A DNA stretch of 64,000 nucleotides from Planctomyces sp. (GTDB taxonomy: Bacteria > Planctomycetota > Planctomycetia > Planctomycetales > Planctomycetaceae): NCBI GenBank assembly GCA_016795105.1, contig JAEUIH010000032.1, positions 1 through 64,000 of the forward strand, in the 5' to 3' direction. The notes under the pieces were generated by a model that had not been told where the DNA came from, searched no databases, and saw nothing but the letters and a program-made list of their open reading frames with translations. How positions within the stretch are numbered: position 1 is the first letter of the stretch; every line of letters begins with the position of its first letter. Of this stretch, positions 14,929 to 42,727 are shown in pieces. The position numbers and the translations under genes are program-made.

Positions 14929-14944
14929 ATTTTCGGAGACTTCC

Positions 14945-16033
14945 ATGAAGTATTCGAGCGTGTTTTCGTTTTTGGTCGCTGCGCACATGTTTGCTGCACT
15001 CATGTTCGTTCCAGCGAGCATGAGTGGCTGTGCTTCTGTTTACGCCGAGGAACCAGCTGTCCGAGTCAGCAATATTCGGCGAGTCTTTCATAATGGTGAG
15101 CACAACGCTTTTACGGATCTGATCACTTTCCGTGGACAATACTATCTCACGTTCCGAAGCTGCCCCGACGGACACATGGTGCACCCCACGGCATCTGTAA
15201 TCGTATTGTCGAGTAGTGACCTGCAAACGTGGGAGCAGGTATTTCGCTTTCAGGTACCTCTTCGCGATACCCGCGACCCTCACTTCCTGGTATTTCGTGA
15301 TCGGTTGTTTGTATATACAGGCACGTGGTTCAGTGGTAAGACCACGATTCCCGTAGCCGAATACGACATGAACAAACATCTGGGGTTTGGAGTCTGGACG
15401 GATGATGGTTCCGAGTGGCACGGCCCGCTCATGCTTGAAGGCACCTTCGGGCACTACATCTGGCGTGCAGCCAGTTTTGGTGACAAGGCATACCTCTGTG
15501 GACGTCGCAAAATCCACTTTGAAGAAGGCCTTCGAGGTGAACCTCTTGAAGTGGAATCTGTCATGCTCGAAAGTGATGACGGATTGATCTGGAAGAAGAA
15601 ATCAGTCTTTCAGGAAATCGATGGCGATGAAACCGCTTTCCTCTTCGAACCCGATGGAAGCGTGCTGGCAATCGGAAGACGTGGACGTGGCACTGCCCAA
15701 TTGCTGCGGTCAAGCTCCCCATGGAACGAATGGAACCGCATCAATCTGGATCGCAGTGTTGGAGGCCCCCTGGTCATCCACTGGGGAGACAGAATCGTTG
15801 TCGGCGGACGCAAAACAACAGAAGCGACTGGCCCTAAGACAACACTTTCCTGGCTCAGCGGCGATTCCCTCAAAGAGTTCGCTGAACTCCCGAGCGGCGG
15901 CGATAACTCGTATCCGGGCTTCATTCCGCTGTCCGACACGAAGGCAGTCGTTTCCTGGTATTCAAGCCACGAAACTGACGATGCCGGAAAACCAGTCACG
16001 GCCATCTACATGGCAGATCTGGAAAAGCAGTAG
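14945..16033 (+). CDS. Secreted BNR/sialidase-like beta-propeller protein (exo-alpha-sialidase / glycosyl hydrolase-like)
   Basis: Signal peptide, then repeated S-x-D-G-x-x-W-like motifs (SSSDLQTWE, TDDGSEWH, SDDGLIWK) typical of BNR repeats. GGAGA Shine-Dalgarno sits 5 nt upstream of the ATG. Confidence 0.6.
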   Translation: MKYSSVFSFLVAAHMFAALMFVPASMSGCASVYAEEPAVRVSNIRRVFHNGEHNAFTDLITFRGQYYLTFRSCPDGHMVHPTASVIVLSSSDLQTWEQVFRFQVPLRDTRDPHFLVFRDRLFVYTGTWFSGKTTIPVAEYDMNKHLGFGVWTDDGSEWHGPLMLEGTFGHYIWRAASFGDKAYLCGRRKIHFEEGLRGEPLEVESVMLESDDGLIWKKKSVFQEIDGDETAFLFEPDGSVLAIGRRGRGTAQLLRSSSPWNEWNRINLDRSVGGPLVIHWGDRIVVGGRKTTEATGPKTTLSWLSGDSLKEFAELPSGGDNSYPGFIPLSDTKAVVSWYSSHETDDAGKPVTAIYMADLEKQ

Positions 16034-16074
16034 ACGTCTGGAAGGTCTCACGGATTTGTGCCCGCCCGGAAACA

Positions 16075-17697
16075 TCAGAAATCAATCTGAGCTCGCAAGC
16101 CAAACATATCCGTGTGGCTCTCTGGAAACGCCGGGGTATCGGAAACGGCATGCACGTAGTTGAAGACCATCTTTGTGTACGGATTCCAGTACCAGTTCAG
16201 TCCGGCTGTGTAGTCTGTAATCGTACCGCCGGCAACAACGCTGTCATTCAGATCAAGCCACGACCAACGCGCCGCGACTTCCCATGCACCAAATCCCGGA
16301 TTGCAGTTCGTCCCGCCAAAGCACAGATTCGTCTTCGGCATGACTCGGTCAATGGCTCCCGTCTTTCGATCGTATGGCCGATGTTCGCCCGTCAGGAAGT
16401 AACCAGCCTGCGCGTAAGCACCTGGTAAAACTGCAGTATCAGCGCCGCTCACATTGACAAAGTTTACCATTGCCTCCGACTGAAGACTGAAAGGTCCATT
16501 CACCCATAACAGTTCGGAGCCAAGCACATTGTACGCCGGAACAGTCAGATTTCCTGTTGAAACGAAAAACGGAGTTCCGTTTGATCCTCCGGGCACAGCC
16601 TGTCCGCTCGTTCCAACAGCACCAGGTCCATTGGCCCCAATGAAGAATTCGGGAATGGTTCGGAAGTTGATCGTGTCCGAGGGCGGAGAATTGAAAAAGT
16701 GACCAGCCCCCAGATGCAGATACTCTGTTCCATTACACTCCCAAAGTGGCAGAAACGTCAATCGCTCCGAAGTTCCCCATCCGCCATCTGTGCTGAGCGA
16801 CCCCCCAAACTGATCTTGTCCCGTCCGAAACACGGACGCAGCCCAGGTCATATCGAGCGACTCCGAAGCATCGTAGAATCCTGCACCGATGTGACGAAAC
16901 GGAGTGAATGGCTGGAACAGAAGAGAACGCTCCATAAATGTCGTGTAACGAAAGCTGCTGACGACCTCCAGACTAAAGGGCTGTTTCCATTGTCCAATCC
17001 TCACATTCCCCAGCAGTGGAACCTGAGTTTGTTCCAGCCAGACATCTGTGAATGTCGGACGACCAAAGAACCCAAAATCCATCTGGAAAAAGTAGTTCGT
17101 TGTCTCTGTCACGCTTCCCTTTGCGGAAAGTCGAGCGCGTCTGAAGTCAGCACCATCCTGTATGTTACCGTATTCCGCTTTGCTGATGTCATCCTGGGTA
17201 ATCCAGCCGGCATCCGCCTGAAACACACCATTCACGGTCAACGTCGGATACGTTTTTTTACTGGCCTTTTCCGTAAGAGATTTCACAGTCTTATCGAGTT
17301 CCGCGATTCTCTGATCCTGCAGGCTGTCTGTTTCTGAGAGATCGTCCGCGAACGCTTTGCCGCCCGTTGACTCAGCATCAACTGTCGCGGGATGAGGTTC
17401 GTCGGCGATACGAAGTGAACGAGGTTCTTCGAGTAGGGACGCGGAACCAACAGGCGGAAAGACCTCAGACTCGGAAGCTCCTGAGGGCTCCCTTCCTTCG
17501 AGATCTTCGACTCTGTTCTTTAACTGCTTGTTATCCTGTTCGAGCTGCTCAATTCTCTGGAGCAGCGTCCTGAACACTTCATCCTTGTCTTCCGCTCTGA
17601 CATCGCGGTGATACGGAACAAACAGTGTTAACAGGATCAGAGTTACAAAACACCGAGAACCAGCAATATGCGTGTGTGTTTTTCGTCGTGACAACAT
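16075..17697 (-). CDS. Outer-membrane beta-barrel porin-like protein (OprO/P-like) with an N-terminal coiled-coil
   Basis: Signal peptide (MLSRRKTHTHIAGSRCFVTLILLTLFV), then a coiled-coil (LLQRIEQLEQDNKQLKNRVEDLEG), then alternating amphipathic beta-strands ending ...FGLRAQIDF (C-terminal Phe). The longer ORF extends to 17907. Confidence 0.6.
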   Translation of the reverse strand: MLSRRKTHTHIAGSRCFVTLILLTLFVPYHRDVRAEDKDEVFRTLLQRIEQLEQDNKQLKNRVEDLEGREPSGASESEVFPPVGSASLLEEPRSLRIADEPHPATVDAESTGGKAFADDLSETDSLQDQRIAELDKTVKSLTEKASKKTYPTLTVNGVFQADAGWITQDDISKAEYGNIQDGADFRRARLSAKGSVTETTNYFFQMDFGFFGRPTFTDVWLEQTQVPLLGNVRIGQWKQPFSLEVVSSFRYTTFMERSLLFQPFTPFRHIGAGFYDASESLDMTWAASVFRTGQDQFGGSLSTDGGWGTSERLTFLPLWECNGTEYLHLGAGHFFNSPPSDTINFRTIPEFFIGANGPGAVGTSGQAVPGGSNGTPFFVSTGNLTVPAYNVLGSELLWVNGPFSLQSEAMVNFVNVSGADTAVLPGAYAQAGYFLTGEHRPYDRKTGAIDRVMPKTNLCFGGTNCNPGFGAWEVAARWSWLDLNDSVVAGGTITDYTAGLNWYWNPYTKMVFNYVHAVSDTPAFPESHTDMFGLRAQIDF

Positions 17698-21490: not shown

Positions 21491-22675
21491 CTATTCAAAC
21501 TCAACCGGATCCAACTGAATGGGCTCAGATTTATCCCATCTCACAGCCTTCTCTTCTTCACCTGGTTCAGTCAGTGGCCGAACAACTCGGAAACCAACAC
21601 CAAGCGCGTCCGTAAAATACCAGATGCTCTGAGGCACCTGAGGATCCTGTTCTTTCCACTGAAGCGATGAACCTTCACGAGCAGCACTGCGAAGCATGCG
21701 AGGCGCATCGTCCCAGCCGCCGCCTCGAACAATTCGAGGATATTCCGTCAGAGGAATGACCAGAGGATTCACCACTTCACCGCCGGCCCGAAGCCGATAT
21801 GTATCCGACGAATACTGATCAAGTACCCATTCTGCAACATTGCCATGCATATCATGCAGGCCCCATGGATTCGGTTTTTTCTGACCGACTCGCTGATACT
21901 TACCATCACTGTTTTCTTCAAACCAGGCGTATTCTCCCAGCACTGAAGCATCATCACCAAATGAATATGCGGTCGTTGTACCTGCCCGGCATGCATACTC
22001 CCACTCGGCCTCGGTCGGCAGTCGGTAATAGCGTCCTGTCTTTGCCGAAAGCCACTGACAATACATGCGAGCAGCATGCTGAGTCATACAGATGGCGGGA
22101 TGAGTTTCCTTGCCCATCGAAAAGCTCATGTCGGTATAGGGAGGAGTGGGTCGAGTCACGGCGTCTGCAACGGCATCTCGGGGAGTTGCCGATGTACCAA
22201 ATGCCGCGCGACGATAGTAATCCATCTTCTCGCACCAGACATCGTACTGATCCCAGGTGATTTCAAACTTTGCAATCCAGAATGGACCAACCTGAACTTC
22301 GTGCAGTGGTCCTTCGTCGTCGCCACGTTCTGCTTCGCCGTCCGGACTTCCCATCATGAATTTTCCACCCTTGATCGGAATCATTTCAATCACAGGATCG
22401 GTGTGCTCGATGATTTCCGAATATGGCTTCATCTCTGCTTCGGTTGAGGCCACAGCATCCGGAATGATGATGGGTTCCGTCTTCGGATACACAGGAAGCT
22501 TGTCGTCCTCTGCCCCTTCCGAGGACGTCGCCACTGCGGGAGTTGACGGAGCCTCTTCACTGTGGGCTGTTTTCCAGCCCCAACCACTGAAAACAATCAC
22601 CGCGAACACAAAGATGACACCGGACACCAGGACGTGATGTGATCCGGACGCGAGAGATTTCGCGCGGAACAACAT
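21491..22675 (-). CDS. Formylglycine-generating enzyme (FGE/SUMF1) family protein, membrane-anchored
   Basis: The FGE-sulfatase domain is marked by GGKFMMGSP...[12 protein letters not shown]...[25 protein letters not shown]...[14 protein letters not shown]...RIVRGGGW, with an N-terminal TM helix. The start at 22675 is ATG. Confidence 0.8.
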
Positions 22676-22858
22676 GAGAGGCAACCTTTCAGAAGGTGGG
22701 ATCGGCGGGTAGGATGGCGAAAAACACGCCAACATGCAGGACCTGATCCTAACGTCCCGAGAGGCCAAAGTCTCGCGAAAGTACGAAAAAACAGCCACTG
22801 TACACAAGGTCCGGCGAATCTCCCGGAATCCCCCAACTCAAGCTGCAAAGTTTAACGG

Positions 22859-22964: not shown

Positions 22965-24404
22965 CTAGAGTTCAGGTTCCGCATTCACAACTTCGGTCTT
23001 TCCTGCGTCTCCAGTCTCAGGATCTCCGGACTCAACATCGTCCGATTCGAGTTGCTGACCGGGGATCGGTTCACTGTCGCTGCCAGCCAGAGGCGGTTCC
23101 GGAACGACATATGTTCTGGTGACTCTGCTTGCCCCCGAAACACCTGTGATTTCAATTCCACCGATCGTCTGACCTGCCGAAATCAGCGGTATGTTGCCTG
23201 AACGCCCTGGCATCGGTGCCTTGTACCGCAACTTCTGGCCACCACCGGACACTTCGATGTATTCGAACTGTTCCTCGCATCGAATTGTGATCCTCGGTCC
23301 TTTCCCTGGCGTTCGATCAAGTCCAAGAATTTGCAGAGGATCAGACGCTGGTTCACTTAGCGGTTCACCCAAAGAAATGTCCCGCACAGCTTCCAGTTCG
23401 TCGGCACTACGATTTGAAGATTCTGCCTGAACACTCTCAAACTTGCTTCCGGAAGCGCTGCGATCTCTGCGGCCTGCCAGCTGTTCGGCTTTTTCTTTCG
23501 GTTCATCGGCTTCCTCAGACGTATCATCTTTTGACCTTCGTGGACTCTGACTCCGACGCTGACGTGGCTCTGAAAACTGGTCTTGAGTATCCAGCCCTGA
23601 GAACCCACGCAGACTGTCAGCGATCGGACTCGAGTATTGTCCTCCGGCACTTTGCCCCCCTGAACCACCGGAAGGAAATCCGTTCGACGGAAACCCCGAG
23701 CCCGAATTGAAGCCGGATCCCTGGGATTGTGGCCCAAAGGCGGATGGTGACCCAAACGCCGGAATTCCGCCCGATAACATACTCATAGGGTTCATCCCCG
23801 CGCCCAGCCCTGTAGGCAACCCCTGGCCTTCTGCTACTTCCGAACCTTCCGGCTGCAACACGGTTTCGGGATCACCGGAGCCCTGGGATTTCTTTTTGGC
23901 TTTACGTTTCTTCGCAGCTTTGGATGTCTTTGGTTCTGCTTCAGGATCATTTGGGTCCGGTTCCGGATCACCGCCCGCTACTGGTTCAGGTTCCGTACCG
24001 GTCACAGGTTCCTTTGTTGGGTCCGGACCGTTCACCGGAACCGGCTCCTGAGGCCCTCCGGTGCCAGGCTCCTGCGGTGCAGGATCAATGGGCTTCGAAC
24101 CTTCCACACTGTCAGCAGCCGCATGAAAACCAGAGTCCTGAGACTTATCTCCGTAGGGCTGCATCCCCGCTGGCGAAGTAGAAAATGGAACTGAACTCGT
24201 CGTACCCACAGAATTGCCGGACGCAGAGGCCAGTAATTCTGCGAACTTCTGCTGGCTCTGCTCCTGCATTAAGCGGCCGACGTTCAGCAATCCCACCAGG
24301 ATCACCGCTGCGACAGCAACAATGAGGGTGGACTGCAACGGGGCATTCCCAGGATTCGAATCGTGAAATCGCCGTATCTTCGCCTTTAGCCGACCGCCGA
24401 TCAT
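22965..24404 (-). CDS. Hypothetical membrane-anchored low-complexity (Pro/Gly/Ser/Glu-rich) protein, downstream of and co-directional with the Ser/Thr kinase
   Basis: A 479-aa ORF with N-terminal TM helix (LIVAVAAVILVGLL), a long disordered PEP/GSG-rich region and a C-terminal ~100 aa ordered segment. Confidence 0.5.
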   Translation of the reverse strand: MIGGRLKAKIRRFHDSNPGNAPLQSTLIVAVAAVILVGLLNVGRLMQEQSQQKFAELLASASGNSVGTTSSVPFSTSPAGMQPYGDKSQDSGFHAAADSVEGSKPIDPAPQEPGTGGPQEPVPVNGPDPTKEPVTGTEPEPVAGGDPEPDPNDPEAEPKTSKAAKKRKAKKKSQGSGDPETVLQPEGSEVAEGQGLPTGLGAGMNPMSMLSGGIPAFGSPSAFGPQSQGSGFNSGSGFPSNGFPSGGSGGQSAGGQYSSPIADSLRGFSGLDTQDQFSEPRQRRSQSPRRSKDDTSEEADEPKEKAEQLAGRRDRSASGSKFESVQAESSNRSADELEAVRDISLGEPLSEPASDPLQILGLDRTPGKGPRITIRCEEQFEYIEVSGGGQKLRYKAPMPGRSGNIPLISAGQTIGGIEITGVSGASRVTRTYVVPEPPLAGSDSEPIPGQQLESDDVESGDPETGDAGKTEVVNAEPEL

Positions 24405-24491
24405 GGCAGGCTCCTGTTCTGAAAGTATTCCGGAATGGACTTGCTTTCAAAACAGATCAACATCTCGTGGCAGATCAGGACATCAATTCTT

Positions 24492-27400
24492 CTATGGTGT
24501 ACTCGGGACAGCTTTCGGAACCGGAACTTCGGCCGCAGGTTCAGAAGTGACTTCGTCGGAACGGTCCTCGACAGCGATCAGCCGATGAACTGCGTCGATT
24601 GCCCGCTTCCGCCAGAATTCGGTTTGAACCACTCGTTCGGCAGATACTTCTGGCTGCTTCAGTATCTGATCTGCAAAATTGACTGCCTCGGTTTCGCGTC
24701 CGGCAACTGTGAGAGCCTTCAGTCGGAGATCATCCCAGGTTTGCTGTGCTTCCGGATACATCTGACTGGCTCGCTGAATCGCTATCAGGCTCGTCTCAAA
24801 CTCTCCACCTGCCAGAAGATTGTTTACCAGAAACGGAACTCGACCTCCATGGAAGTCTGACGCCACTGCCACCCATCGTTTTGCCGCGTCGGAAGACGCA
24901 CGAAGGTCAGACGGATCATCCGTCTGAGAATATTTGCCCGCATAACACATCGACAGACAGTAAAGGACCTCGGGCTTGACCTGTGAATAGATGGACGGCG
25001 CTCGCTCTGCTTCTTCCAACTCCGGAATGGCCTCCGCGAACTCTCCCTTCGGCAATCTTGTTACGGCTTTCAGAAAGGGGAATATCGCATCATTTTCAAA
25101 TGGTGACGCATCGGCCATTTCATCAAGCATGGTTCGAAACGGCCCACTTTGTCCAATCAGTAACATTGCTGACACAGCTGCAAATCGTCCGCCGAAGTAC
25201 ACAAGTTTTCCCGAAGTTGATGACTCAGAAACCACTCCCTGCATCCCAAGTCCGCGTCCAAGTTCTGACAGACCTTCATCGAGGAGTGAGTCGTCCTCAG
25301 AAAACGATTCCAGAATCCCACCAATTTCCCATGCAACCTTCAGGAATTCCATAGGTGCCAACGCACCTGTATCCCATTGCGTCAGTAGCATTGAAGTTCT
25401 GCTCATTAAATCGAACGTTGAGTTCAACCTGTTGATATCTCCCTCTGCCAGCATCCCTCGCAAACGTTCAAGCTGTGGCGCGATCTCATCTCTGCGACCC
25501 TCCAGAGTAAGAGACAGCGCCACCGCGACTTCAGTCTCCGGTTCCTGATCAACCAGCACCCGAACGAGTGCTGCCTGTTCCCGAACCTCAGCATGTCGTC
25601 CGTCAAACAATAAACAGGCCATCAACAGCTTCCTGGCCGAAACGGATCGTGGATATTTATCGAGCAGTTCTTCGAGAGCCGGGATTGCCTCGGCGCGTGA
25701 CGTCATCGTGAGTACCTTTGTCAGCAATCGGTACTCATCCGGCAAATGGTCGGCAAGTTCACTGCTCAACAACTCACTGGCGGATGCTCGTTCATCGATC
25801 AGTCCTGGACTCATTCTCACGAGCCAGAACTTCTCCAGAGCACGATGCTCCAGTGAGCGCGGCTTTACTGTCTTTAGCAATTCACGAGTCTCTGCAAACC
25901 GCTGCATTGAATATAGGGTCTCGATCCGGGCGAACTGGAGTGCACAACGACTGTCGTCATCCATCACATCCTGCTGCAACGCCTCATTCAGCGAATTGAG
26001 TTTCGCCTCAGTGGCATCTCTTCCCGTGTTCGACTTCCCAACAAGTTCCGACATGATTCGGTCGCGCTTCGCAGATTTCAGTTCGGCCTCAGTCGCTCGA
26101 TTCTTTTCTGCATCAATATCAGCCTTAAGCTGAAACTCCTTCTTTTCTGCGGCGTTTGCGGCCATCGCCAGATCTGAATTTGCCTTGACGATTCCGGCGA
26201 TCAGCAATCCGATGACTGCTGTAGTCACACCCATCACAGCGGTCACAAGCAGCTTGTTGCGAACTGTAAATCGGCTTGCAATGTACCAGGCGGATGGCTT
26301 GCGAGCGAGAATCGGAAGATGAACAAGATGCCTCCGGAGGTCCTCAGCAAACTCACCAACCGATTGATATCGCTGACCCACATCCTTCATCAGGCCTTTT
26401 GCCAGAATGAGATCCAGGTCTCCAGTCAATTCGCGGATGTATCCGGAAAGCTGATCCTGGGTCAGGCTGATTTTGGCGAGTGAATCAGGTTCCGGTTCCC
26501 GCAGTCGCGCACTCATCAGCGGCACGGATTCGTTCTGAATCACCCTGACCACTTCCGGAAGAGAAGCACCCCTAAGCTTCGAAAGGTCGAGTGTCGGCAT
26601 GCCGGTCAGCAACTCATACAGCACGGCAGCAAGTGAATAAACATCCGTTCGAGTATCCACCTGACCTGCGTTACCGCCAGCCTGTTCGGGACTCATATAA
26701 CGAATCGTTCCCAGAATCTGACCGGCTCCTGTTTCGTGAAATCGAGTCTGGTCATTCTCATCAATCAGCTTGGCCAGTCCAAAGTCGATCACTTTAACGG
26801 TGGGTCGTGTTCCTTCAGGACCCGGACTGACCAGAATATTCCCAGGCTTGATGTCGCGATGTAGAATGCCTCTCTGATGTGCATGCTGAATCGCATCGCA
26901 GATGGCGAGCACCAGGTTGATTCGATCGCGGAGTGTGCTTCGGAATTCCTGACAGTACTGCGTCACCGGCATTCCCTCGACGTACTCCATCACAAAGTAG
27001 GGATGTCCGTCCGGAGTCTGGCCGGCTTCCAGCAGGTGAGCGATGCACGGATGATTCATTTTCGCCAGTGACTGACGCTCCAGCTTAAACCGCTGAAGTG
27101 CTTCATCAGTGATCCTGGCCACCTGAATCATCTTGATGGCGACCTTACGACGAACCGGCTCCTTCTGCTCCGCGAGATAAACGGTTCCCATCCCGCCTTC
27201 GCCAATCTTGTTCTTCAGCTCGAACGGCCCAAGCCTGGCTCCTGATAAGCGAACGATGTCGATCCATGGAGACTCGGCGTCAAAGTCCTGTGCGATTGCT
27301 TCCCCAGTGGAAATGGTTCTTGTTCGACCTGACGAAGCGCCATCGGGCATCTGAGTTCGCTCAGTGGGAATCTCGTCCACTGGATCCGTGTCCTGATTGC

Positions 27401-27698
27401 AGTCCGAAGAATCCCGGATCGCAGGTGTCGCATAGCGGTTGATGCCAACAGGTAGAGTCGCCGGAACTACTTCATCACTCAGCCATTTCACGCACTGCCG
27501 GATAAACAGCGCCTGATCTTCTCGCTCCAGACTCCCAGCGAAATCCCGGAGCTGTTCGATCACTTTATCTCTGCCATTCACTCGACTTCCCCCCCACATG
27601 CACAAGCGTTGCGTTGACTCATAAAAAGGGGCCACTTCCTGCAGCATCCTTCGGTGACGAATTCTCTGCAGACTGACCACCAATGCACGCAAAAACAC
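24492..27698 (-). CDS. Serine/threonine protein kinase with a TM segment and a large C-terminal TPR-like repeat region
   Basis: Hanks kinase motifs: glycine loop GEGGMGTVYLA, VAIK, HRDIKPGNIL, DFGLA and SPEQ. A TM helix (LLVTAVMGVTTAVIGLLIAGIV) is followed by ~550 aa of helical repeats. The precise start is uncertain (GTG at 27698, or ATG at 27647 or 27599). Confidence 0.85.
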   Translation of the reverse strand: MFLRALVVSLQRIRHRRMLQEVAPFYESTQRLCMWGGSRVNGRDKVIEQLRDFAGSLEREDQALFIRQCVKWLSDEVVPATLPVGINRYATPAIRDSSDCNQDTDPVDEIPTERTQMPDGASSGRTRTISTGEAIAQDFDAESPWIDIVRLSGARLGPFELKNKIGEGGMGTVYLAEQKEPVRRKVAIKMIQVARITDEALQRFKLERQSLAKMNHPCIAHLLEAGQTPDGHPYFVMEYVEGMPVTQYCQEFRSTLRDRINLVLAICDAIQHAHQRGILHRDIKPGNILVSPGPEGTRPTVKVIDFGLAKLIDENDQTRFHETGAGQILGTIRYMSPEQAGGNAGQVDTRTDVYSLAAVLYELLTGMPTLDLSKLRGASLPEVVRVIQNESVPLMSARLREPEPDSLAKISLTQDQLSGYIRELTGDLDLILAKGLMKDVGQRYQSVGEFAEDLRRHLVHLPILARKPSAWYIASRFTVRNKLLVTAVMGVTTAVIGLLIAGIVKANSDLAMAANAAEKKEFQLKADIDAEKNRATEAELKSAKRDRIMSELVGKSNTGRDATEAKLNSLNEALQQDVMDDDSRCALQFARIETLYSMQRFAETRELLKTVKPRSLEHRALEKFWLVRMSPGLIDERASASELLSSELADHLPDEYRLLTKVLTMTSRAEAIPALEELLDKYPRSVSARKLLMACLLFDGRHAEVREQAALVRVLVDQEPETEVAVALSLTLEGRRDEIAPQLERLRGMLAEGDINRLNSTFDLMSRTSMLLTQWDTGALAPMEFLKVAWEIGGILESFSEDDSLLDEGLSELGRGLGMQGVVSESSTSGKLVYFGGRFAAVSAMLLIGQSGPFRTMLDEMADASPFENDAIFPFLKAVTRLPKGEFAEAIPELEEAERAPSIYSQVKPEVLYCLSMCYAGKYSQTDDPSDLRASSDAAKRWVAVASDFHGGRVPFLVNNLLAGGEFETSLIAIQRASQMYPEAQQTWDDLRLKALTVAGRETEAVNFADQILKQPEVSAERVVQTEFWRKRAIDAVHRLIAVEDRSDEVTSEPAAEVPVPKAVPSTP

Positions 27699-27876
27699 TG
27701 CAGAATTCGGTGCCAGGATCGAGATCGGGAGGCCTGAACGATTGAGAACAATCGTTCTGCTTTGGTGGGATTCAGCCGAATTCCCTGTCCGATTCGTGAG
27801 CCCCGCGTTGATCTTCCAGAAGGTGCCGCTGCGCGCGGCGTTTTTCGTTTTGAGACCTTCTGCAAAGGGGCAACCA

Positions 27877-29064
27877 ATGCATGTAAAACAAGCCCGAATT
27901 CGTCACCTCATTCGAGATCACCATGGTATGGAATCACTCCAGTCCGTGCTGATCCTCGCCGTCGCCGCGATGGTCCTCCTCGGACTGAAACTGTTGTGGA
28001 ATCCAGGATCGTCCGGGGGCGAGGGAATGATGGCTGGAGTCACTGAACTCTTTGAAACTATCTTCAATGGTGGCACTCCAACCGAAAACAACGGCGGCAC
28101 AGAAACCGGTGGGAACGGCAGCAATGGGGGTGGGGAGAACAATGGAACCGGAGGGGCTGGCGGCGGTGGAGAAAACAGCGGACCTGGCGGCCCCGGCGGG
28201 CCGGAGGGCCCCGGCGGTGAAGGTGGTCAAGGCGGTAACGAAGGAACTGGTAACGAAGGAACTGGGGGTGAAGGCAACGGAAGTGGTGACGGAACAGGGA
28301 CCGGAGAAGAAGGTGGACCAGACGGAGGCGACAAACCGGGTGATGACAAAAAGCCTGAAGATGATAAGAAACGCGATGACGGCAGAGTCGATCCTCTCGA
28401 CGCCGACTTTGCGAAGGCACTTGCCAAAGCCGTCGCCGAAAACGCAAAGGAAAAGCGACTCTCTGCCGTAGCCGGTCTGGTGACATCGGCAGAACAAAAT
28501 CTGGCGAAGTCCTCTGAAATCTATCGCGTAACAGAACTGGCAACAGAAGCGGCTCGCAACACGCCCGACCTTCCGTTGGCGGACAAAATCGCTATGGAAA
28601 ATCAGCTTTCAAAAACCCGCATTGATATGTTAAACGCTCGGATCGCCGTGGACGACGCGAAAGCCGGACTTGATTTTGTGAAGACTCAAACAGAACGATT
28701 CTCGCGGGCTGTTGGTGTCATGGGCGCGGTCGACACACTGATGGAAGCAGATCGAAAACGACAGGAACTCGTCGCAAACGGACAATATGCGGAAGCCTGG
28801 CGAGTGACTGTCGGCGGAACGACTCGCTACATCACGGAAGTTGCGACGTCATTCACAGATAAACTCCCTGGCGTCAAGGGGTCGCTCGCATCAGAAGTCT
28901 TTGCCGCCACAGCGGAAGTCGCTGGTCGGCAATTAGCCGACGATACGTTTCCCGCAATGGTGGATATCTCACACTGGCTCTACGAGAAGCCGTGGTGGCC
29001 AAAGAACCGCAGACCTCGATTCCCGCGAGGATACGATCCGGCGAATGATCCAACGCAGAAATGA
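27877..29064 (+). CDS. Flp-prepilin-like N-terminus fused to a long Gly/Glu-rich linker and a ~230-aa alpha-helical C-terminal domain (giant Flp-like pilin or minor pilin)
   Basis: The N-terminus ...IRDHHGMESLQSVLILAVAAMVLLGL parallels the small Flp pilin downstream (FHGEESGNEALQTVAVLATGAIVLVGLL). The ATG at 27877 has an AAGGGG Shine-Dalgarno. A low-complexity GGxGxE region spans roughly residues 95-190. Confidence 0.55.
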   Translation: MHVKQARIRHLIRDHHGMESLQSVLILAVAAMVLLGLKLLWNPGSSGGEGMMAGVTELFETIFNGGTPTENNGGTETGGNGSNGGGENNGTGGAGGGGENSGPGGPGGPEGPGGEGGQGGNEGTGNEGTGGEGNGSGDGTGTGEEGGPDGGDKPGDDKKPEDDKKRDDGRVDPLDADFAKALAKAVAENAKEKRLSAVAGLVTSAEQNLAKSSEIYRVTELATEAARNTPDLPLADKIAMENQLSKTRIDMLNARIAVDDAKAGLDFVKTQTERFSRAVGVMGAVDTLMEADRKRQELVANGQYAEAWRVTVGGTTRYITEVATSFTDKLPGVKGSLASEVFAATAEVAGRQLADDTFPAMVDISHWLYEKPWWPKNRRPRFPRGYDPANDPTQK

Positions 29065-29237
29065 TTGTGCGCGTATGGCGGACGGTACATGAAATGTGCC
29101 TGCTACTTTTTTTAAAAAACAATGTCTGGTTCTGAGCTCAAACGAACATCTGTTTAATGAAGGGGATGAGTCAAACATCCCGGAACAAAAGATCGAAAAT
29201 TGGTTTCCCTCAACTCAGTTCTTTGAAAGGAACTCAC

Positions 29238-29423
29238 ATGTCACGATTCGTACGATCTCTGGTCCGTTTCCATGGTGAAGAGTCCGGTAACGAAGCTCTG
29301 CAGACTGTTGCAGTACTCGCCACCGGAGCCATCGTTCTTGTCGGTCTGCTTGGTGTCTGGAACTCCGATGTTAAGACTGGCGTCGGATCACTCATCAAAG
29401 ATCTGTTCGGCACGAAAGGTTAG
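29238..29423 (+). CDS. flp: Flp/Fap family type IVb prepilin (61 aa)
   Basis: MSRFVRSLVRFHGEESGNEALQTVAVLATGAIVLVGLLGVW fits the Flp pattern F-x-x-D/E-E-S-G-x-x-A-I/L-E/Q-Y/T followed by a hydrophobic helix. AAGGA sits 8 nt upstream of the ATG, and the gene lies immediately upstream of the prepilin peptidase. Confidence 0.6.
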   Translation: MSRFVRSLVRFHGEESGNEALQTVAVLATGAIVLVGLLGVWNSDVKTGVGSLIKDLFGTKG

Positions 29424-29464
29424 CCCACCCGGGCCACCGATCGCTGATCTGGTCAATTCAGGAA

Positions 29465-29497
29465 CGCCCCGGCATCTCCCAATGCCGGGGCGGTTTT
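29465..29497 (+). terminator. Intrinsic terminator/attenuator hairpin after the flp pilin gene
   Basis: An 11-bp stem, CGCCCCGGCAT...ATGCCGGGGCG, encloses a 6-nt loop and is followed by GTTTTCGT. Confidence 0.55.
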
Positions 29498-29515
29498 CGT
29501 AGTGGAGTTCCTTAA

Positions 29516-39202: not shown

Positions 39203-40060
39203 ATGTCTGCTCATCAGCTCACTTCAGTCATTACTTCTTCGTGTCTCTTCTTTCTGGCTGGATTTATCGGCTGCAGTCAATTGCTGCGATTGTGGGACGA
39301 GTTTCTCACACAGAGCTTCAGTGGACCAGTCGCCCGATATCGGCAGCTGAGAATGGATGAACAACGCCTGGCGCACGGACTGAGGTTATGGTCTGTGTTA
39401 CTTGTTGCAGGAACAGCAGGCCTGATCCTGATTCAATCGTGGCCAATTGCTTTTCTTTATCCCTGTCTGATGGCCGTCGCTCCTCCATACGCCATTGAGT
39501 ACTTCATTCGACGCCGTGAACAGCTCCTGGAATCCCAGTTGATCGGTTCTTCGACAGGACTTGCTAATACGGTCAAAGCGGGACTCTCCATTCCCCAGGG
39601 GCTGAAGTCGGTCGCTGATGAGGCACCATTCCCACTGCGAACCGAACTCGATCAGATTGTTTACCAGTTTGATCATGGACGACCTCTGCAGGAGTCGCTG
39701 GCCGATGCGAGAAAGCGGCTGCAGCTGGAGTCATTCACTCTGTTCTGCCTCGCGCTTGAGGTCGCAGTGGAACGAGGTGGCCGGGTCAACATTACACTGG
39801 AACGTCTCAGTACGACATTGCAGGAGTGGTTCCGACTCCGCCGAAAACTCGATTCCGACACATCGGCCGGAAGATATGCAATTCTGATCATGGGATTCTG
39901 TCCCGCGGCATTTGTCCTGCTGTTTCTGGCGACCGGCATGAATGCAATTCTCTCACTTTTTACAGATTTGCGGGGACAGCTTGTCCTGTGTGCGATCATT
40001 CTGCTGATCTGTTTCGGTGTCCGCTGGGCCTGCCGAATCATGAACATCAAGCTCACCTGA
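39203..40060 (+). CDS. tadB: TadB-like type II secretion system F-family membrane protein
   Basis: Polytopic membrane protein with a T2SSF-like core (LPDALELLAxxxxAG-type motif: LFCLALEVAVERGGRVNITLERL). Its position after cpaF matches canonical Tad loci. Confidence 0.7.
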   Translation: MSAHQLTSVITSSCLFFLAGFIGCSQLLRLWDEFLTQSFSGPVARYRQLRMDEQRLAHGLRLWSVLLVAGTAGLILIQSWPIAFLYPCLMAVAPPYAIEYFIRRREQLLESQLIGSSTGLANTVKAGLSIPQGLKSVADEAPFPLRTELDQIVYQFDHGRPLQESLADARKRLQLESFTLFCLALEVAVERGGRVNITLERLSTTLQEWFRLRRKLDSDTSAGRYAILIMGFCPAAFVLLFLATGMNAILSLFTDLRGQLVLCAIILLICFGVRWACRIMNIKLT

Positions 40061-40078
40061 AACTGAGGACTCGAGGAA

Positions 40079-41044
40079 ATGTTTTCGTACTCGAATATGC
40101 TCATCACAAACCTGAGCTTCTCAGCGATCCCGCTGCACGAACTTCAGCAGGACTTTTCCCTGGGCGCGTCATTCCTGCTGGGAATATCTGTGTTCCTGCT
40201 GACCAGCCGCCTCGTTCTGATTGTTGACCGGCATGTCCGGACATTTGCTGAAGAATGGGAATTCGAACAGTCACGCCGTATTTCTCTTCGCAAAGGCAAC
40301 TCTGTTTACAGACTAACAGAACCTCTCATTGACGAACTCTGTGAGACTCGATTTGTCCAGCGGCTCGAAACACCGATCATCGAGCTTTCTCTGAGTCGAG
40401 GTGGAGACCCGCTTCCATGGAAACCACGAGAATTTGTGGCGGTGTCTCTGATGGAAGCACTCATACTCTGTCTTGCACTCATACTTATCAGCAGTGGTCT
40501 GTTGCCAATCACACACAGTCTTCTGATTGGAATGACTCTGGCAGTCATCTATTTCCGGGCGGCGATCAAGGCGATTCGGCGTAAGGCCGAGGAGCGAGTT
40601 CAACAGATCGAGCGGCGATTACCGTTTGGTATCGACCTCGTTGCCCTGATGATGCGAGCAGGGGCAGGATTCCGAGACGCACTTCAGACCGTGATTTCCG
40701 AGAGCCAGCCTCACCCGTTTGCTGTCGAATTACAAAGAGTACTCGATGATGTAAACCGAGGTAAAACACTCAGGACGTCTCTCGAAGAATTCAGCAACCG
40801 CCTGCGTTCTGACGATCTGCGGGAGATGGTGTTTGCGATTCAGAAATCAGAAGAACTTGGAACCCCTCTGGCTGACATATTTACCAACCTTGCTGATCAA
40901 ATGCGGTTGAGAAAATCTCAATGGGCAGAAGCAACAGCCGGGAAAGCGCAGATCCGCATGCAGGGGCCTCAATTCGTAATGATGGCTGCCTGCATGATCA
41001 CGATTCTAACCCCGTTTTTGTTCGAGATGATTACGAACTGGTGA
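40079..41044 (+). CDS. tadC: TadC-like type II secretion system F-family membrane protein
   Basis: The T2SSF domain is indicated by LPFGIDLVALMMRAGAGFRDALQTV...MVFAIQKSEELGTPLADIF, and this is the second F-family gene after tadB. Confidence 0.7.
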   Translation: MFSYSNMLITNLSFSAIPLHELQQDFSLGASFLLGISVFLLTSRLVLIVDRHVRTFAEEWEFEQSRRISLRKGNSVYRLTEPLIDELCETRFVQRLETPIIELSLSRGGDPLPWKPREFVAVSLMEALILCLALILISSGLLPITHSLLIGMTLAVIYFRAAIKAIRRKAEERVQQIERRLPFGIDLVALMMRAGAGFRDALQTVISESQPHPFAVELQRVLDDVNRGKTLRTSLEEFSNRLRSDDLREMVFAIQKSEELGTPLADIFTNLADQMRLRKSQWAEATAGKAQIRMQGPQFVMMAACMITILTPFLFEMITNW

Positions 41045-41052
41045 ATCACTCT

Positions 41053-41955
41053 ATGAAAGGCGCAGCTATGCAGTACATCCTCTCTATCGAAGCTCGGGGA
41101 AGTTCACCTGTGACCTGTCCACTGAGTCAGGACGTGTATCGAATCGGCTCGGGCTCTGCCTGCCAGATTCGAATTGCCACAAAATCTGATCACGCATTAA
41201 CACTCTTCCGTCGGGGACCAGCGTTCTTTGCGCTGAATCGAACGTCTGAGACTTTAAGAATTGGCAACGATCAGTTCGCTCCGAACAGCACTATGCCCTG
41301 GGCTCCTGGCCGTCGTCTTCAGCTTGAAGGAACGACGCTGAGGCTTGAAGCCGCAATTCCCGAACAAGTGGCCACTCGAATGGTCTACTCTCGCGCAATC
41401 GAACCCGACACATCCGAAAAACGCCTCAACTCTCAGGCGACTGTCCCCGCAACAACTGCAAATGTGTCGGGTTCAAAACCCGCAAATATGTCGGGTTCAA
41501 AACCCGCAAATATGTCGGGTTCGAAACTCGCAAATATGTCAGGTTCGAAACCCGCAAATATGCCAGGTTCGAAAACCACTGCCAAAAAGCGGCGGTCGAT
41601 GTTGACGACAATTGTGATGTGCGTAGTCACGGTCGTAACAATGCACTTCATTGCGGGAGTTGCCGCAGAACTTCAGACACGGAGAAAGGCAGAACTGCAG
41701 TCAATCGCTTGTGAAATCCAGCAAATCGTCCGAACAGAGGAACCGAAATCAGCCGTGCAACTCCGAAATCTGGCGTTGCTGAGCCTCGTCTCACGCCTGC
41801 AGTTCGCGGACGCTCTCGATGAAACCGCGAACAGAGACTCTGCAAAGTTCGAGATTCGAATCTTCTGCGAAAGTCTGCAGAATAGTTCTCACAGCACTCC
41901 AGCCGAACTAAAAATTGCGGATGAACTCATTCGCTGGATCAATCCCTCGGAGTAA
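41053..41955 (+). CDS. FHA-like domain membrane protein with a 5x SGSKPANM tandem repeat
   Basis: The N-terminal VYRIGSGSACQIRIATKSDHALTLFRRGPAFFALN resembles an FHA beta-sandwich. A TM helix (MLTTIVMCVVTVVTMHFIAGV) lies in the middle, and a 24-bp DNA repeat occurs 5 times in the coding sequence. Confidence 0.55.
   Translation: MKGAAMQYILSIEARGSSPVTCPLSQDVYRIGSGSACQIRIATKSDHALTLFRRGPAFFALNRTSETLRIGNDQFAPNSTMPWAPGRRLQLEGTTLRLEAAIPEQVATRMVYSRAIEPDTSEKRLNSQATVPATTANVSGSKPANMSGSKPANMSGSKLANMSGSKPANMPGSKTTAKKRRSMLTTIVMCVVTVVTMHFIAGVAAELQTRRKAELQSIACEIQQIVRTEEPKSAVQLRNLALLSLVSRLQFADALDETANRDSAKFEIRIFCESLQNSSHSTPAELKIADELIRWINPSE
41464..41577 (+). repeat. Coding tandem repeat, ~4.7 copies of a 24-bp unit (ATGTCGGGTTCAAAACCCGCAAAT) encoding MSGSKPAN
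   Basis: Direct reading of the sequence shows copies differing by 1-3 nt. Confidence 0.8.
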
Positions 41956-41971
41956 GCTGCTGAGGCCGTCC

Positions 41972-42727
41972 ATGCTGATGTCGAACTTCAACCTGTTCAA
42001 CGAGAGTCATGTGAACCTGAACGATTTGTGCGAGGATTTTGAAGACGCGTGGAATTCCAGCCATGTTCCGGATGTCTTTGAATTCCTGAAAAGAGCCTCG
42101 ACTGAGGACCTCGAGCAGGCTGCGCTGGAACTGATTCCAATCGATATGGAGCGGCGGTGGAAAAAACAACAGATTCCGCTGGAGCTCTCCTCTTACCTGA
42201 CCGCTTTCTCACAGGCTCTCGCGCCTGATGCACTGATTGAACTCATCTGTTCCGAGTTCTGCATTCGCAACACATACGGCGACTGCATTTCACGCACGAC
42301 CATCCTGCAGCAATATGGACATCTTGGGAAACGTCTTCATGATGAACTCGAGAAGGCTTCCGCCAATCTAAGCTTCCCCTTCGTGAGCATTATGCTGAAC
42401 GGGGTCGTCGCATCATCAGTAAAACTGGATCGAGTTGTGACCGCCGGACGTCAAAATCATTTGAGCCAGAAGCCCTGGTCAAGTTCGTCTGCACCGGATC
42501 GCCATCGACTCATCCTGTGCGAAGCTTCAGATCCGAGTCTCAGCAGAAATCAACTGGAAGTGATCCGTGTTTCACCAGATACGATACGTGTCAAAAACAC
42601 GAGTTCAAATCGAGCGCTTGCAGTTCGTGGCTGCCCTCCACTCGATGCTGGCCAGTCAGATCTCTATCGTCTCCCTGTCTTCATTCACCTGGGTGCGTCC
42701 AGATATCTCCGCGTCAGCCAGAACTAA
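41972..42727 (+). CDS. Hypothetical protein at the end of the Tad locus
   Basis: The ORF track gives 41915..42727 with a TTG start, and the first plausible non-overlapping ATG is at 41972. No domain was recognised. Confidence 0.45.
   Translation: MLMSNFNLFNESHVNLNDLCEDFEDAWNSSHVPDVFEFLKRASTEDLEQAALELIPIDMERRWKKQQIPLELSSYLTAFSQALAPDALIELICSEFCIRNTYGDCISRTTILQQYGHLGKRLHDELEKASANLSFPFVSIMLNGVVASSVKLDRVVTAGRQNHLSQKPWSSSSAPDRHRLILCEASDPSLSRNQLEVIRVSPDTIRVKNTSSNRALAVRGCPPLDAGQSDLYRLPVFIHLGASRYLRVSQN

Follow-up and report, generated by a model that had tools for sequence, protein, structure and literature searches.

CpaF, the motor ATPase of Tad (type IVc) machines, has been described in a 'class III' form with the domain layout FHA-IDR-3HB-NTD-CAD, mostly in Betaproteobacteria (PMC12019362), and the Kil apparatus of Myxococcus combines an FHA-fused motor, KilF, with several FHA proteins in a paper that does not mention kinases (PMC8460266). 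Kinase/FHA control of an envelope machine is established for the type VI secretion system (T6SS), in which PpkA works in a post-translational pathway with FHA proteins (PMC8460266), and has been proposed for some variants of the type VII secretion system (T7SS) (PMC11217815). Signalling from kinases to extracytoplasmic function (ECF) sigma factors is established for ECF43 (PMC13147305; PMC7826278), where phosphorylation in the sigma-2.2 and linker regions activates the factor (PMC13147305). Here we analyzed a stretch of 64 kb from Planctomyces sp. (the window; positions 1 to 64,000 of contig JAEUIH010000032.1, assembly GCA_016795105.1), which is nearly all of a 68.8-kb contig and in which a tad-type gene set spans 22965-42727. 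This locus is a previously undescribed, conserved form of the Tad machine that is specific to Planctomycetota; we rate it as a subtype of a known machine, and not as a new kind, because FHA-CpaF fusions and kinase/FHA control of secretion machines have already been published. The full model that we propose, in which such a subtype is placed under kinase/FHA/ECF control of both its motor and its transcription, we consider probable.

The subtype, which has neither secretin nor TadZ in its loci and has accessory proteins of its own and a kinase/ECF/FHA cassette, was not found described in the searchable literature: planctomycete papers list Tad genes only generically, and a 2025 review of the phylum mentions the pili of crateriform structures with no occurrence of Tad, secretin or FHA. 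In public records the motor is annotated as 'conjugal transfer protein' or 'pertussis toxin liberation protein H', and the 306-aa gene upstream of the CpaB-like gene as 'hypothetical protein'; the CpaF and 306-aa proteins of the window, like the kinase, are 100% identical to NCBI entries of its contig. The genes on the forward strand of the window, from the small pilin to the last FHA protein, are as follows, with the evidence for each assignment (TM, transmembrane).

29238-29423 (+): putative Flp-type prepilin of 61 aa, leader ...EESG/NEALQTVAVLATGAIVLVGLL, assigned from its sequence and presumed to be the major pilin
29465-29492 (+): G+C-rich hairpin followed by a T-run, with an 11-bp stem of which 9 pairs are G-C
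29516-30172 (+): TadV/CpaA-type prepilin peptidase (Pfam Peptidase_A24, 3.6e-13)
30169-30375 (+): mini-pilin of 68 aa, RSG/FAAKE..., with E at +5 and a conserved C-terminal GSPW/Y, assigned from its sequence
30387-31136 (+): TadE-like pseudopilin of 249 aa (Pfam TadE E 0.005, below the cut-off; N-terminal hydrophobic helix)
31143-32960 (+): TadG-like large pseudopilin of 605 aa (orthologues with PF13400)
32993-33829 (+): pseudopilin-like protein of 278 aa with a TadE/F-type N-terminus (RRG/TVQMELALFLPL; syntenic orthologues)
35719-36639 (+): conserved bitopic protein, 297-306 aa in its family (synteny)
36663-37286 (+): divergent CpaB/RcpC of 207 aa with a TM helix and SAF-like and RcpC-like domains (hhalign)
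37301-39175 (+): FHA-CpaF/TadA motor ATPase of 624 aa (Pfam T2SSE, 3.2e-57)
39200-40060 (+): TadB platform protein (Pfam T2SSF, 2e-17)
40079-41044 (+): TadC platform protein (Pfam T2SSF, 3.2e-17)
41053-41955 (+): bitopic FHA-like protein (hhalign against the CpaF FHA domain, 96.1%, E 2.9e-9)
41915-42727 (+): soluble two-domain FHA protein, likely start 41972 or 41978 (60-sequence alignment and structure model)

Every class of gene that a first-pass annotation of this DNA had named is present at or near the coordinates that it gave, among them the TadV peptidase, the CpaF ATPase, adjacent TadB and TadC and the small Flp gene with the hairpin behind it. Its view of the locus as atypical holds for the FHA domain on CpaF and for the lack of secretin and CpaE in cis, but the locus is less unusual than was supposed because FHA-CpaF is a published class.

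The core gene order, namely flp, tadV, mini-pilin, TadE-like, TadG-like, coiled-coil pilin, the 306-aa type, CpaB-like, FHA-CpaF, TadB, TadC and the FHA-like TM protein, recurs in L001, L002, L084, L085, L086, L094 and L095, and L091 and L093 have part of it (L001-L095 are labels of the compared CpaF loci or contigs). It was seen in Symmachiella, Planctomycetales 10988, Gemmataceae, Pirellulaceae and five metagenomic contigs. In L007, from Phycisphaeraceae, the half from cpaB to the FHA (TM) gene is shared, and tadV and a short ATPase gene lie on the opposite strand. As judged by synteny, which the first-pass annotation had proposed comparing across Planctomycetota, the conserved core order extends over Planctomycetia and Phycisphaerae. 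Full-length FHA-CpaF homologues at 50-77% identity number more than 100, with Planctomycetaceae, Symmachiella, Gemmataceae, Pirellulales and Planctomycetales as named sources; the Phycisphaeraceae FHA-CpaF is 39% identical, among the matches listed. A rough neighbour-joining tree of the ATPase core, built without support values, placed the window protein with CpaF proteins of many phyla, and the planctomycete FHA-CpaFs formed an exclusive clade (13 of 13) apart from both canonical planctomycete CpaFs and other FHA-CpaFs. The last FHA gene and the ECF sigma factor genes are confined to some lineages.

The proposal that the N-terminus of CpaF is an FHA domain was borne out by the Pfam profile, which matches residues 23-82 with 27.1 bits against a gathering cut-off of 20.7. 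G26, R27 and S37 are kept in 18 of 18 homologues and N62 in 16 of 18; these four are the phosphothreonine-contacting residues of FHA domains. By its sequence, CpaF bears a real FHA domain with conserved phosphothreonine-binding residues.

Profiles for CpaB, secretin and CpaE were used to look for these parts. A CpaF-alignment scan of a genome collection had returned, among the matches listed, mostly ordinary CpaF loci of many phyla, with L004-L007 the only ones of the FHA type; the ordinary loci were reused as controls and as seeds for the three profiles, each built from 41-61 Pfam-confirmed proteins of ordinary Tad loci and run on all six-frame open reading frames (ORFs) of at least 60 aa. 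The first CpaE profile strayed onto CpaF via TadZ-TadA fusions and was rebuilt from proteins of 300-480 aa only. Neither the secretin profile nor the CpaE profile gave a match at E<10 in the window and the retrieved regions of 10 planctomycete FHA-CpaF loci, nor at E<1e-3 after three more loci were added, so that overall 0 of 14 loci (the window and 13 orthologous loci) had either. As a positive control, the two profiles were matched in canonical Tad loci of planctomycetes with E 1e-101 to 1e-148 (1e-105 to 1e-148 for secretin alone), where the gene order is cpaB-secretin-cpaE-cpaF. The absence of both in cis therefore stands for the whole 64-kb window, and the orthologous loci examined are not ordinary Tad operons in this respect either. 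Among the Pfam hits of the locus genes there was no stand-alone TPR lipoprotein that could be TadD, for which no dedicated profile was run. Planctomycetes have canonical Tad loci as well, and the secretins encoded there could act in trans. It is plausible that the machine is not a classical Flp pilus, as had been suggested.

FHA-CpaF and CpaE exclude each other in the loci compared. Over 87 CpaF loci (L001-L086 and the window), CpaE was found in 0 of 16 FHA-CpaF loci and accompanied 63 of 79 CpaF ORFs without FHA, figures that are indicative only because the sample is skewed to relatives of the query. That the two never occur in one locus points to a functional replacement of TadZ by the FHA domain. 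The FHA-CpaF loci of Myxococcota and Betaproteobacteria keep CpaB and secretin directly upstream of the motor, whereas the planctomycete ones do not.

The operon encodes three proteins with an FHA or FHA-like domain, the motor among them. The FHA-like repeat membrane protein reported before is real, but it does not close the operon, because a genuine FHA gene that had not been described comes after it (41915-42727). The membrane protein consists of a cytoplasmic FHA-like domain, a linker, a TM helix at residues 187-205 and a short periplasmic helical tail; its Phycisphaeraceae counterpart retains GR and SxxH. Its linker contains ANMSGSKP five times, encoded by a 24-nt tandem repeat of five copies (41458-41577, 91% matches). 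The repeat is specific to the window and missing from the four orthologues aligned, and so is a recent expansion. In the last protein, the FHA fold is an 11-strand beta-sandwich with a GR / SR / NxS phosphothreonine pocket, in which GR is invariant and SR and NxS are near-invariant across the family and all three are intact in the window. This assignment was made from the 60-sequence alignment and the structure model only, and an hhalign comparison of the domain with the CpaF FHA domain, using 3 sequences, was negative. The last protein has a helical N-domain of a kind that also opens Hanks kinases: 9 of the 9 larger relatives tested carry it at the N-terminus of such a kinase.

Genes for a kinase and for sigma factors stand on the opposite strand.

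24492-27698 (-): bitopic Hanks-type Ser/Thr kinase (Pfam Pkinase, 1.2e-41)
33834-34553 (-): ECF sigma factor of family PF07638, likely start 34430 (Pfam, 8.7e-9)
34519-35283 (-): paralogous ECF sigma factor, likely start 35151 (Pfam Sigma70_ECF, 7.3e-7, and Sigma70_r4_2)

The kinase, whose presence at the locus had been noted before, has its catalytic domain at about residues 159-371 and a TM helix at 483-501, followed by an extracytoplasmic region of about 565 aa that is helical and weakly TPR-like; the NCBI record (100% match, 1029 aa) begins 39 codons later, at 27581. It is the sole kinase in the window. Kinases recur in or beside 7 of the 14 planctomycete FHA-CpaF loci in varied arrangements. 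In the window and L085 the kinase gene diverges from the flp side; in L001 and L094 it has the orientation of the short ATPase gene and lies upstream of it; in L093 it separates the pilin block from the 306-aa gene; in L095 it is downstream, beside the short ATPase; and in L007 it comes directly after the tadC-FHA (TM) pair and overlaps the FHA-TM gene by 4 nt. Several other orthologous loci have no kinase within the sequence retrieved, and several of those others end at contig ends. The control set, 14 CpaF loci of planctomycetes, canonical or other, had one kinase in its 223 kb.

The two ECF sigma factors form a tandem pair and are 58% identical to each other. Two paralogous factors on the opposite strand inside the locus had been described correctly, but they are not a core feature: PF07638 ECF sigmas were found at the window, L002, L085 and L095 only in some lineages and in a different position each time. 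A compact cassette in which an ECF gene is divergent from a Ser/Thr kinase gene followed by an FHA gene occurs on two metagenome contigs, L089 (4138-8805) and L090, with no tad genes in 9 kb. Compared with the window, its ECF sigma factor is 47% identical (the first window ECF against that of L089), its kinase 39% over the full length and its homologue of the last FHA protein 42%. ECF and kinase genes also co-occur around L085 and L095, so that an ECF gene stands by a Hanks kinase gene there as well as in the window and L089/L090, the neighbourhood that marks kinase-associated ECF sigma factors (ECF43, ECF59-62 and similar). In L091 and L093 homologues of the last FHA protein are again the final, closely packed gene of FHA-CpaF tad operons. 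We conclude that kinase, ECF sigma factor and FHA adaptor are a regulatory module that has been repeatedly recruited to the Tad machine and that in the window is interleaved with its structural genes.

In the ECF family the sigma-2.2 motif reads DxxQS, an invariant Ser taking the place of the Glu in DxxQE, and a Thr in the linker between sigma-2 and sigma-4 is likewise invariant. By analogy with ECF43 EcfK/EcfP, this Ser and Thr may be candidate phospho-acceptor sites, which is only a lead. No anti-sigma Pfam domain was found among the ECF neighbours, and a by-eye comparison of few sequences for a promoter motif upstream of the ECF, flp and 306-aa genes gave nothing convincing. Between the second ECF gene and the 306-aa gene, a gap of 435 bp contains a near-perfect inverted repeat of 45 nt at 35351-35395 (AAGCCCATTTTG.GGAAC...GTTCC.CAAAATGGGCTT) and, at 35438-35548 (-) on the ECF strand, an ORF of 36 aa with a single TM helix (MTTSRELCSAFAGILGVAALMAFAVICPFIFLRRCA).

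At 21491-22807 (-), two genes away from the kinase, lies a gene for a membrane-anchored protein with an FGE-sulfatase domain. Relatives have this domain either as a fusion with kinases (the L085 kinase; P0163, P0173, P0181, P0287) or encoded beside the tad locus, with sites at L085 1-1339, L084 17808-20108 and L004 1903-2613, which hints at a kinase-plus-FGE-domain sensory unit.

Besides the small prepilin, two large proteins of the window have Flp-like leaders.

22965-24404 (-): protein of 479 aa with a Flp-like leader (NPG/NAPLQSTLIVAVAAVILVGLL; leader-motif scan, no Pfam match)
27877-29064 (+), ORF from 27742: protein of 395 aa with a Flp-like leader (HHG/MESLQSVLILAVAAMVLLGL; leader motif)

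The usual leader of the Flp family is G/xxxxEY (E5-Y6). The three window proteins of 61, 395 and 479 aa share a leader of the form G / x-E/A-x-L-Q followed by about 20 hydrophobic residues (sites 29286, 27925 and 24350(-)), and a six-frame motif scan of the window found no leader of this type beyond these three. In the 61-aa protein the leader reads G/NEALQ, with Q at +5 and E at +2, and is followed by a hydrophobic helix. This protein is 68% identical to the L002 copy, and its motif also lies upstream of tadV in L001 (3418), L084 (2665) and L086 (3455). Each orthologous locus has one small Flp-leader gene, with 41-58 mature residues, directly upstream of tadV; most have Q at +5 and E at +2, with the two reversed in L084 (Q2/E5), and the L001 orthologue has a weak match to Pfam Flp1_like (E 0.0013). 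The hairpin behind flp is the top terminator-like site in 19.5 kb and is likely an attenuator or terminator that sets the ratio of pilin to machinery.

The 395-aa gene, called a giant Flp-like protein in the first-pass annotation, is real, but the likeness consists solely of the leader motif G/xExLQ and the hydrophobic stretch. Its product has a G/N/E-rich region and a helical C-terminus, with zero Pfam or NCBIfam matches, and tblastn detected no homologue in the related loci compared. The 479-aa gene was left out of the earlier coordinates. It lies 87 bp downstream of the kinase gene on the same strand and encodes one N-terminal hydrophobic segment, a low-complexity middle rich in P, E, G and S, and a small C-terminal domain.

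The peptidase gene tadV is syntenic in all related loci, and the start of the mini-pilin gene, which the earlier gene list also omitted, overlaps its stop. The same slot holds a gene of 55-64 aa in L001, L002, L086, L094 and L095. Pseudopilins like TadE and TadG had been reported: the TadG part holds through its orthologues in L086, L001 and L094, which bear PF13400 Tad (tblastn to the L086 copy, E 3e-47; the window copy itself has no Pfam match), but Pfam support for the TadE part is weak, with 17.3 bits against a cut-off of 22.9, and tblastn found orthologues of the 249-aa protein in six loci. The 278-aa protein ends in a C-terminal coiled coil. Together with the mini-pilin, these proteins of 249, 605 and 278 aa each have a TadE-type prepilin motif and a single hydrophobic helix. 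Minor pilins form 'tip' complexes in TadE/F/G and KilLMN (PMC12075869), and by analogy the mini-pilin, the TadE-like, the TadG-like and the coiled-coil protein may be candidate priming or tip pilins.

Between the pilins and the motor, the 306-aa gene is directly upstream of the CpaB-like gene in every full locus. In the 306-aa protein, a single N-terminal TM helix is joined to a periplasmic domain whose fold has no match to a known family; a word-indexed protein search gave only 3 homologues, and the AF2 model built from these 3 sequences was unusable (pLDDT 38.8). A CpaB-like protein had been predicted and is present as the 207-aa ORF at 36663-37286, but the 306-aa ORF at 35719-36639 is a separate protein. 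The 207-aa family aligns with 59 canonical CpaB proteins (hhalign 95.7%, E 8.7e-9, 182 columns), and the CpaB profile directly matches the orthologues that Phycisphaeraceae, Pirellulaceae and Gemmataceae have in this position (2e-34 to 1e-8); Pfam SAF and RcpC had no match on the window protein. At relaxed thresholds, Pfam and NCBIfam gave zero matches for both FHA-like accessory proteins, both large Flp-leader proteins, the mini-pilin, the CpaB-like protein and the 306-aa protein.

In most relatives a short CpaF-like ATPase gene of 370-400 aa, without FHA, adjoins flp (L001 1940-3148, L004 2695-3813, L006 2291-3532, L007 1490-2680(-), L086 2094-3263(-), L094 1613-2728 and L095 14515-15627(-)); the window, L002 and L085 are without it. 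The short ATPases form their own clade in the rough tree, joined by the extra ATPase of a Myxococcota locus, and could be a dedicated extension or retraction partner of the motor. Directly downstream of the tad operon of L094, on the opposite strand (14628-16747 (-)), are DotU and IcmF-related (TssL/TssM-like) genes and a gene for a protein of more than 4300 aa. The window neighbours of the locus are of planctomycete type (DUF1501, PSCyt2/PSD1, DUF7133), and the G+C content is even across the window (0.51-0.56), which gives no sign of a foreign island.

A mechanism of phospho-control is plausible. The membrane Hanks kinase would sense an extracytoplasmic cue through its large extracytoplasmic domain and phosphorylate a Thr on itself or on a platform component; the FHA domain of CpaF would bind that phosphothreonine, and the motor would be recruited or activated. 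We infer in this way that the CpaF ATPase may be under phosphothreonine control. The FHA domain would thus take the docking or licensing role of canonical TadZ/CpaE, and extending and retracting the pilus would become signal-dependent. In the lineage of the window there may be a second layer, in which the kinase, the PF07638 ECF sigma factor or factors and the soluble FHA protein switch flp/tad transcription by a kinase-to-sigma route, and the flp hairpin would hold pilin in excess over machinery. The two large Flp-leader proteins might be processed by TadV and displayed on the filament or built into it as lineage-specific adhesive or functional subunits or as cargo. Passage through the outer membrane would use a secretin encoded elsewhere or an unknown conduit.

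Several observations weigh against this model. The kinases of different loci are not clearly orthologous, with 26-41% identity in the kinase domain and differing C-terminal domains, and in the closest relative genome the best kinase homologue (41%, full length) is on another contig beside DUF7133/cytochrome c genes. No phosphatase was seen among the locus genes. In the FHA-TM protein the GR motif is without its Arg, with GS or GN in 5 of 5 Planctomycetia members. The window ECFs keep part of the acidic sigma-2.2 motif (its first part), so that phospho-regulation of the ECF sigma factors is only a guess. The 61-aa Flp protein has no match to any Pfam Flp model, and no outer-membrane conduit was recognised in the locus. 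Planctomycetes also encode many kinases and ECF sigma factors, and some adjacency is therefore expected by chance. This richness is what one would expect if the locus were an ordinary Tad locus, its kinase, ECF and last FHA genes being chance neighbours or a mobile cassette that controls something else and the FHA domain of CpaF docking independently of phosphorylation. The cassette of L089/L090 without tad genes nearby, the unlinked kinase homologue of the closest relative and the loci with no kinase in the retrieved sequence fit such an account as well. It does not explain why a kinase accompanies half of the FHA-CpaF loci, once in overlapping frames, when the controls had a single one, why the soluble FHA gene is repeatedly the last, tightly packed gene of tad operons, or why the phosphothreonine-binding residues of CpaF are kept across the clade, N62 included in most, and we regard it as unlikely.

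Other readings concern what the machine builds. It could make no surface pilus at all, and the enlarged planctomycete periplasm would then house a pseudopilus ('endopilus'), periplasmic or trans-periplasmic, or a piston for secretion or uptake; such a device would not need a secretin. The lack of cis secretin, TadZ and a recognisable pilotin in all 14 loci (for the pilotin, again, with no dedicated TadD profile) and the unusually rich set of pilin-like proteins, large ones included, agree with this, as does the bifunctionality of CpaF-type motors in extension and retraction reported in PMC6920026. However, the locus keeps a CpaB/RcpC homologue, which is an alignment protein in canonical systems, long filaments typically go with an abundant small Flp that has an attenuator behind it, and the secretin could be encoded elsewhere in the genome; an endopilus seems to us distinctly unlikely. 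A contact-dependent killing or predation apparatus like Kil of Myxococcus shares the FHA-fused motor, the several FHA proteins and the many unknown accessory genes (PMC8460266), and the large minor pilins could form a variable tip, but the tip genes are reported as restricted to Myxococcota (PMC12075869). The short second ATPase of relatives clusters with the extra Myxococcota ATPase in the rough tree. Against a Kil-like machine, Kil has the cis secretin KilC, the Myxococcota FHA-CpaF locus L010 has a secretin and CpaB, and the planctomycete FHA-CpaFs form a clade away from those of Myxococcota and Betaproteobacteria. Most Planctomycetia are not known predators, which also counts against it, and we hold this reading to be very improbable.

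The fibres of planctomycete crateriform structures have been proposed to aid the uptake of whole polysaccharides into the enlarged periplasm. That the locus is the genetic basis of these fibres, as a retractile Tad-type filament that passes the outer membrane through a non-secretin structure and is fired on a signal from a Ser/Thr kinase, is a speculation to which we give little credence. The gene set is nonetheless a concrete, conserved candidate for surface or periplasmic fibres in planctomycete biology, and it raises the question of how a diderm cell builds a Tad filament without a cis-encoded secretin. If the model of a kinase-controlled Tad subtype is true, it would be a whole-phylum case of TadZ replaced by a phosphothreonine-reading domain on the motor, and Hanks-kinase signalling would be tied directly to the motor of a pilus, much as kinase/FHA control is known for T6SS and proposed for some T7SS variants. 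For signalling, the recurring three-gene cassette of ECF sigma factor, kinase and FHA protein with a kinase-type N-domain would extend kinase-associated ECF systems by an FHA adaptor. The single ingredients are already known in other bacteria.

Set beside known systems, the regulatory part resembles kinase control of T6SS and the PknS-EcfK pair (ECF43) of X. citri in its working and not by membership: common to them are a membrane Hanks kinase beside an envelope machine, an FHA reader and an ECF sigma factor without an obvious anti-sigma factor by the kinase. The machine here is Tad and not T6SS, the window ECFs are PF07638 with DxxQS in contrast to the QTTA of ECF43, and no phosphatase was seen. 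The layout of the FHA-TM protein (FHA-like domain, TM helix, periplasmic part) recalls YscD/PrgH of the T3SS (type III secretion system), but its periplasmic part is a short helical tail and not a set of ring-building domains, and its homology is only to the CpaF FHA domain. With Kil of Myxococcus xanthus (PMC8460266, PMC12075869) the locus has in common the FHA motor, many FHA proteins, accessory genes without known function and large minor pilins, and Kil is likewise without parts of the TadD/TadG/RcpB type; Kil differs in its short secretin KilC, its two clusters and its work with a needle-less T3SS, whereas the planctomycete locus has no secretin and has kinase and ECF genes. Class III CpaF shares the N-terminal FHA domain on a CpaF core, and its loci L035, L054, L010 and L061 are likewise without TadZ/CpaE, but the betaproteobacterial and Myxococcota loci of this class have CpaB and a secretin, and the planctomycete proteins are a separate clade. 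With the canonical Tad/Flp pilus of Aggregatibacter actinomycetemcomitans and Caulobacter crescentus, the locus shares an A24 peptidase, CpaB/RcpC, one ATPase of CpaF type, the TadB/TadC pair, minor pilins like TadE and TadG and a small prepilin presumed to be of Flp type. In contrast to it, the planctomycete locus is without cis secretin, TadZ/CpaE and a recognisable TadD (searched without a dedicated profile), and it has FHA on CpaF, a 306-aa bitopic protein, the FHA-TM protein, a mini-pilin of 55-68 aa, a coiled-coil pseudopilin, in the window a Flp leader of the form G/xExLQ (Q5), and attached kinase, ECF and FHA regulators.

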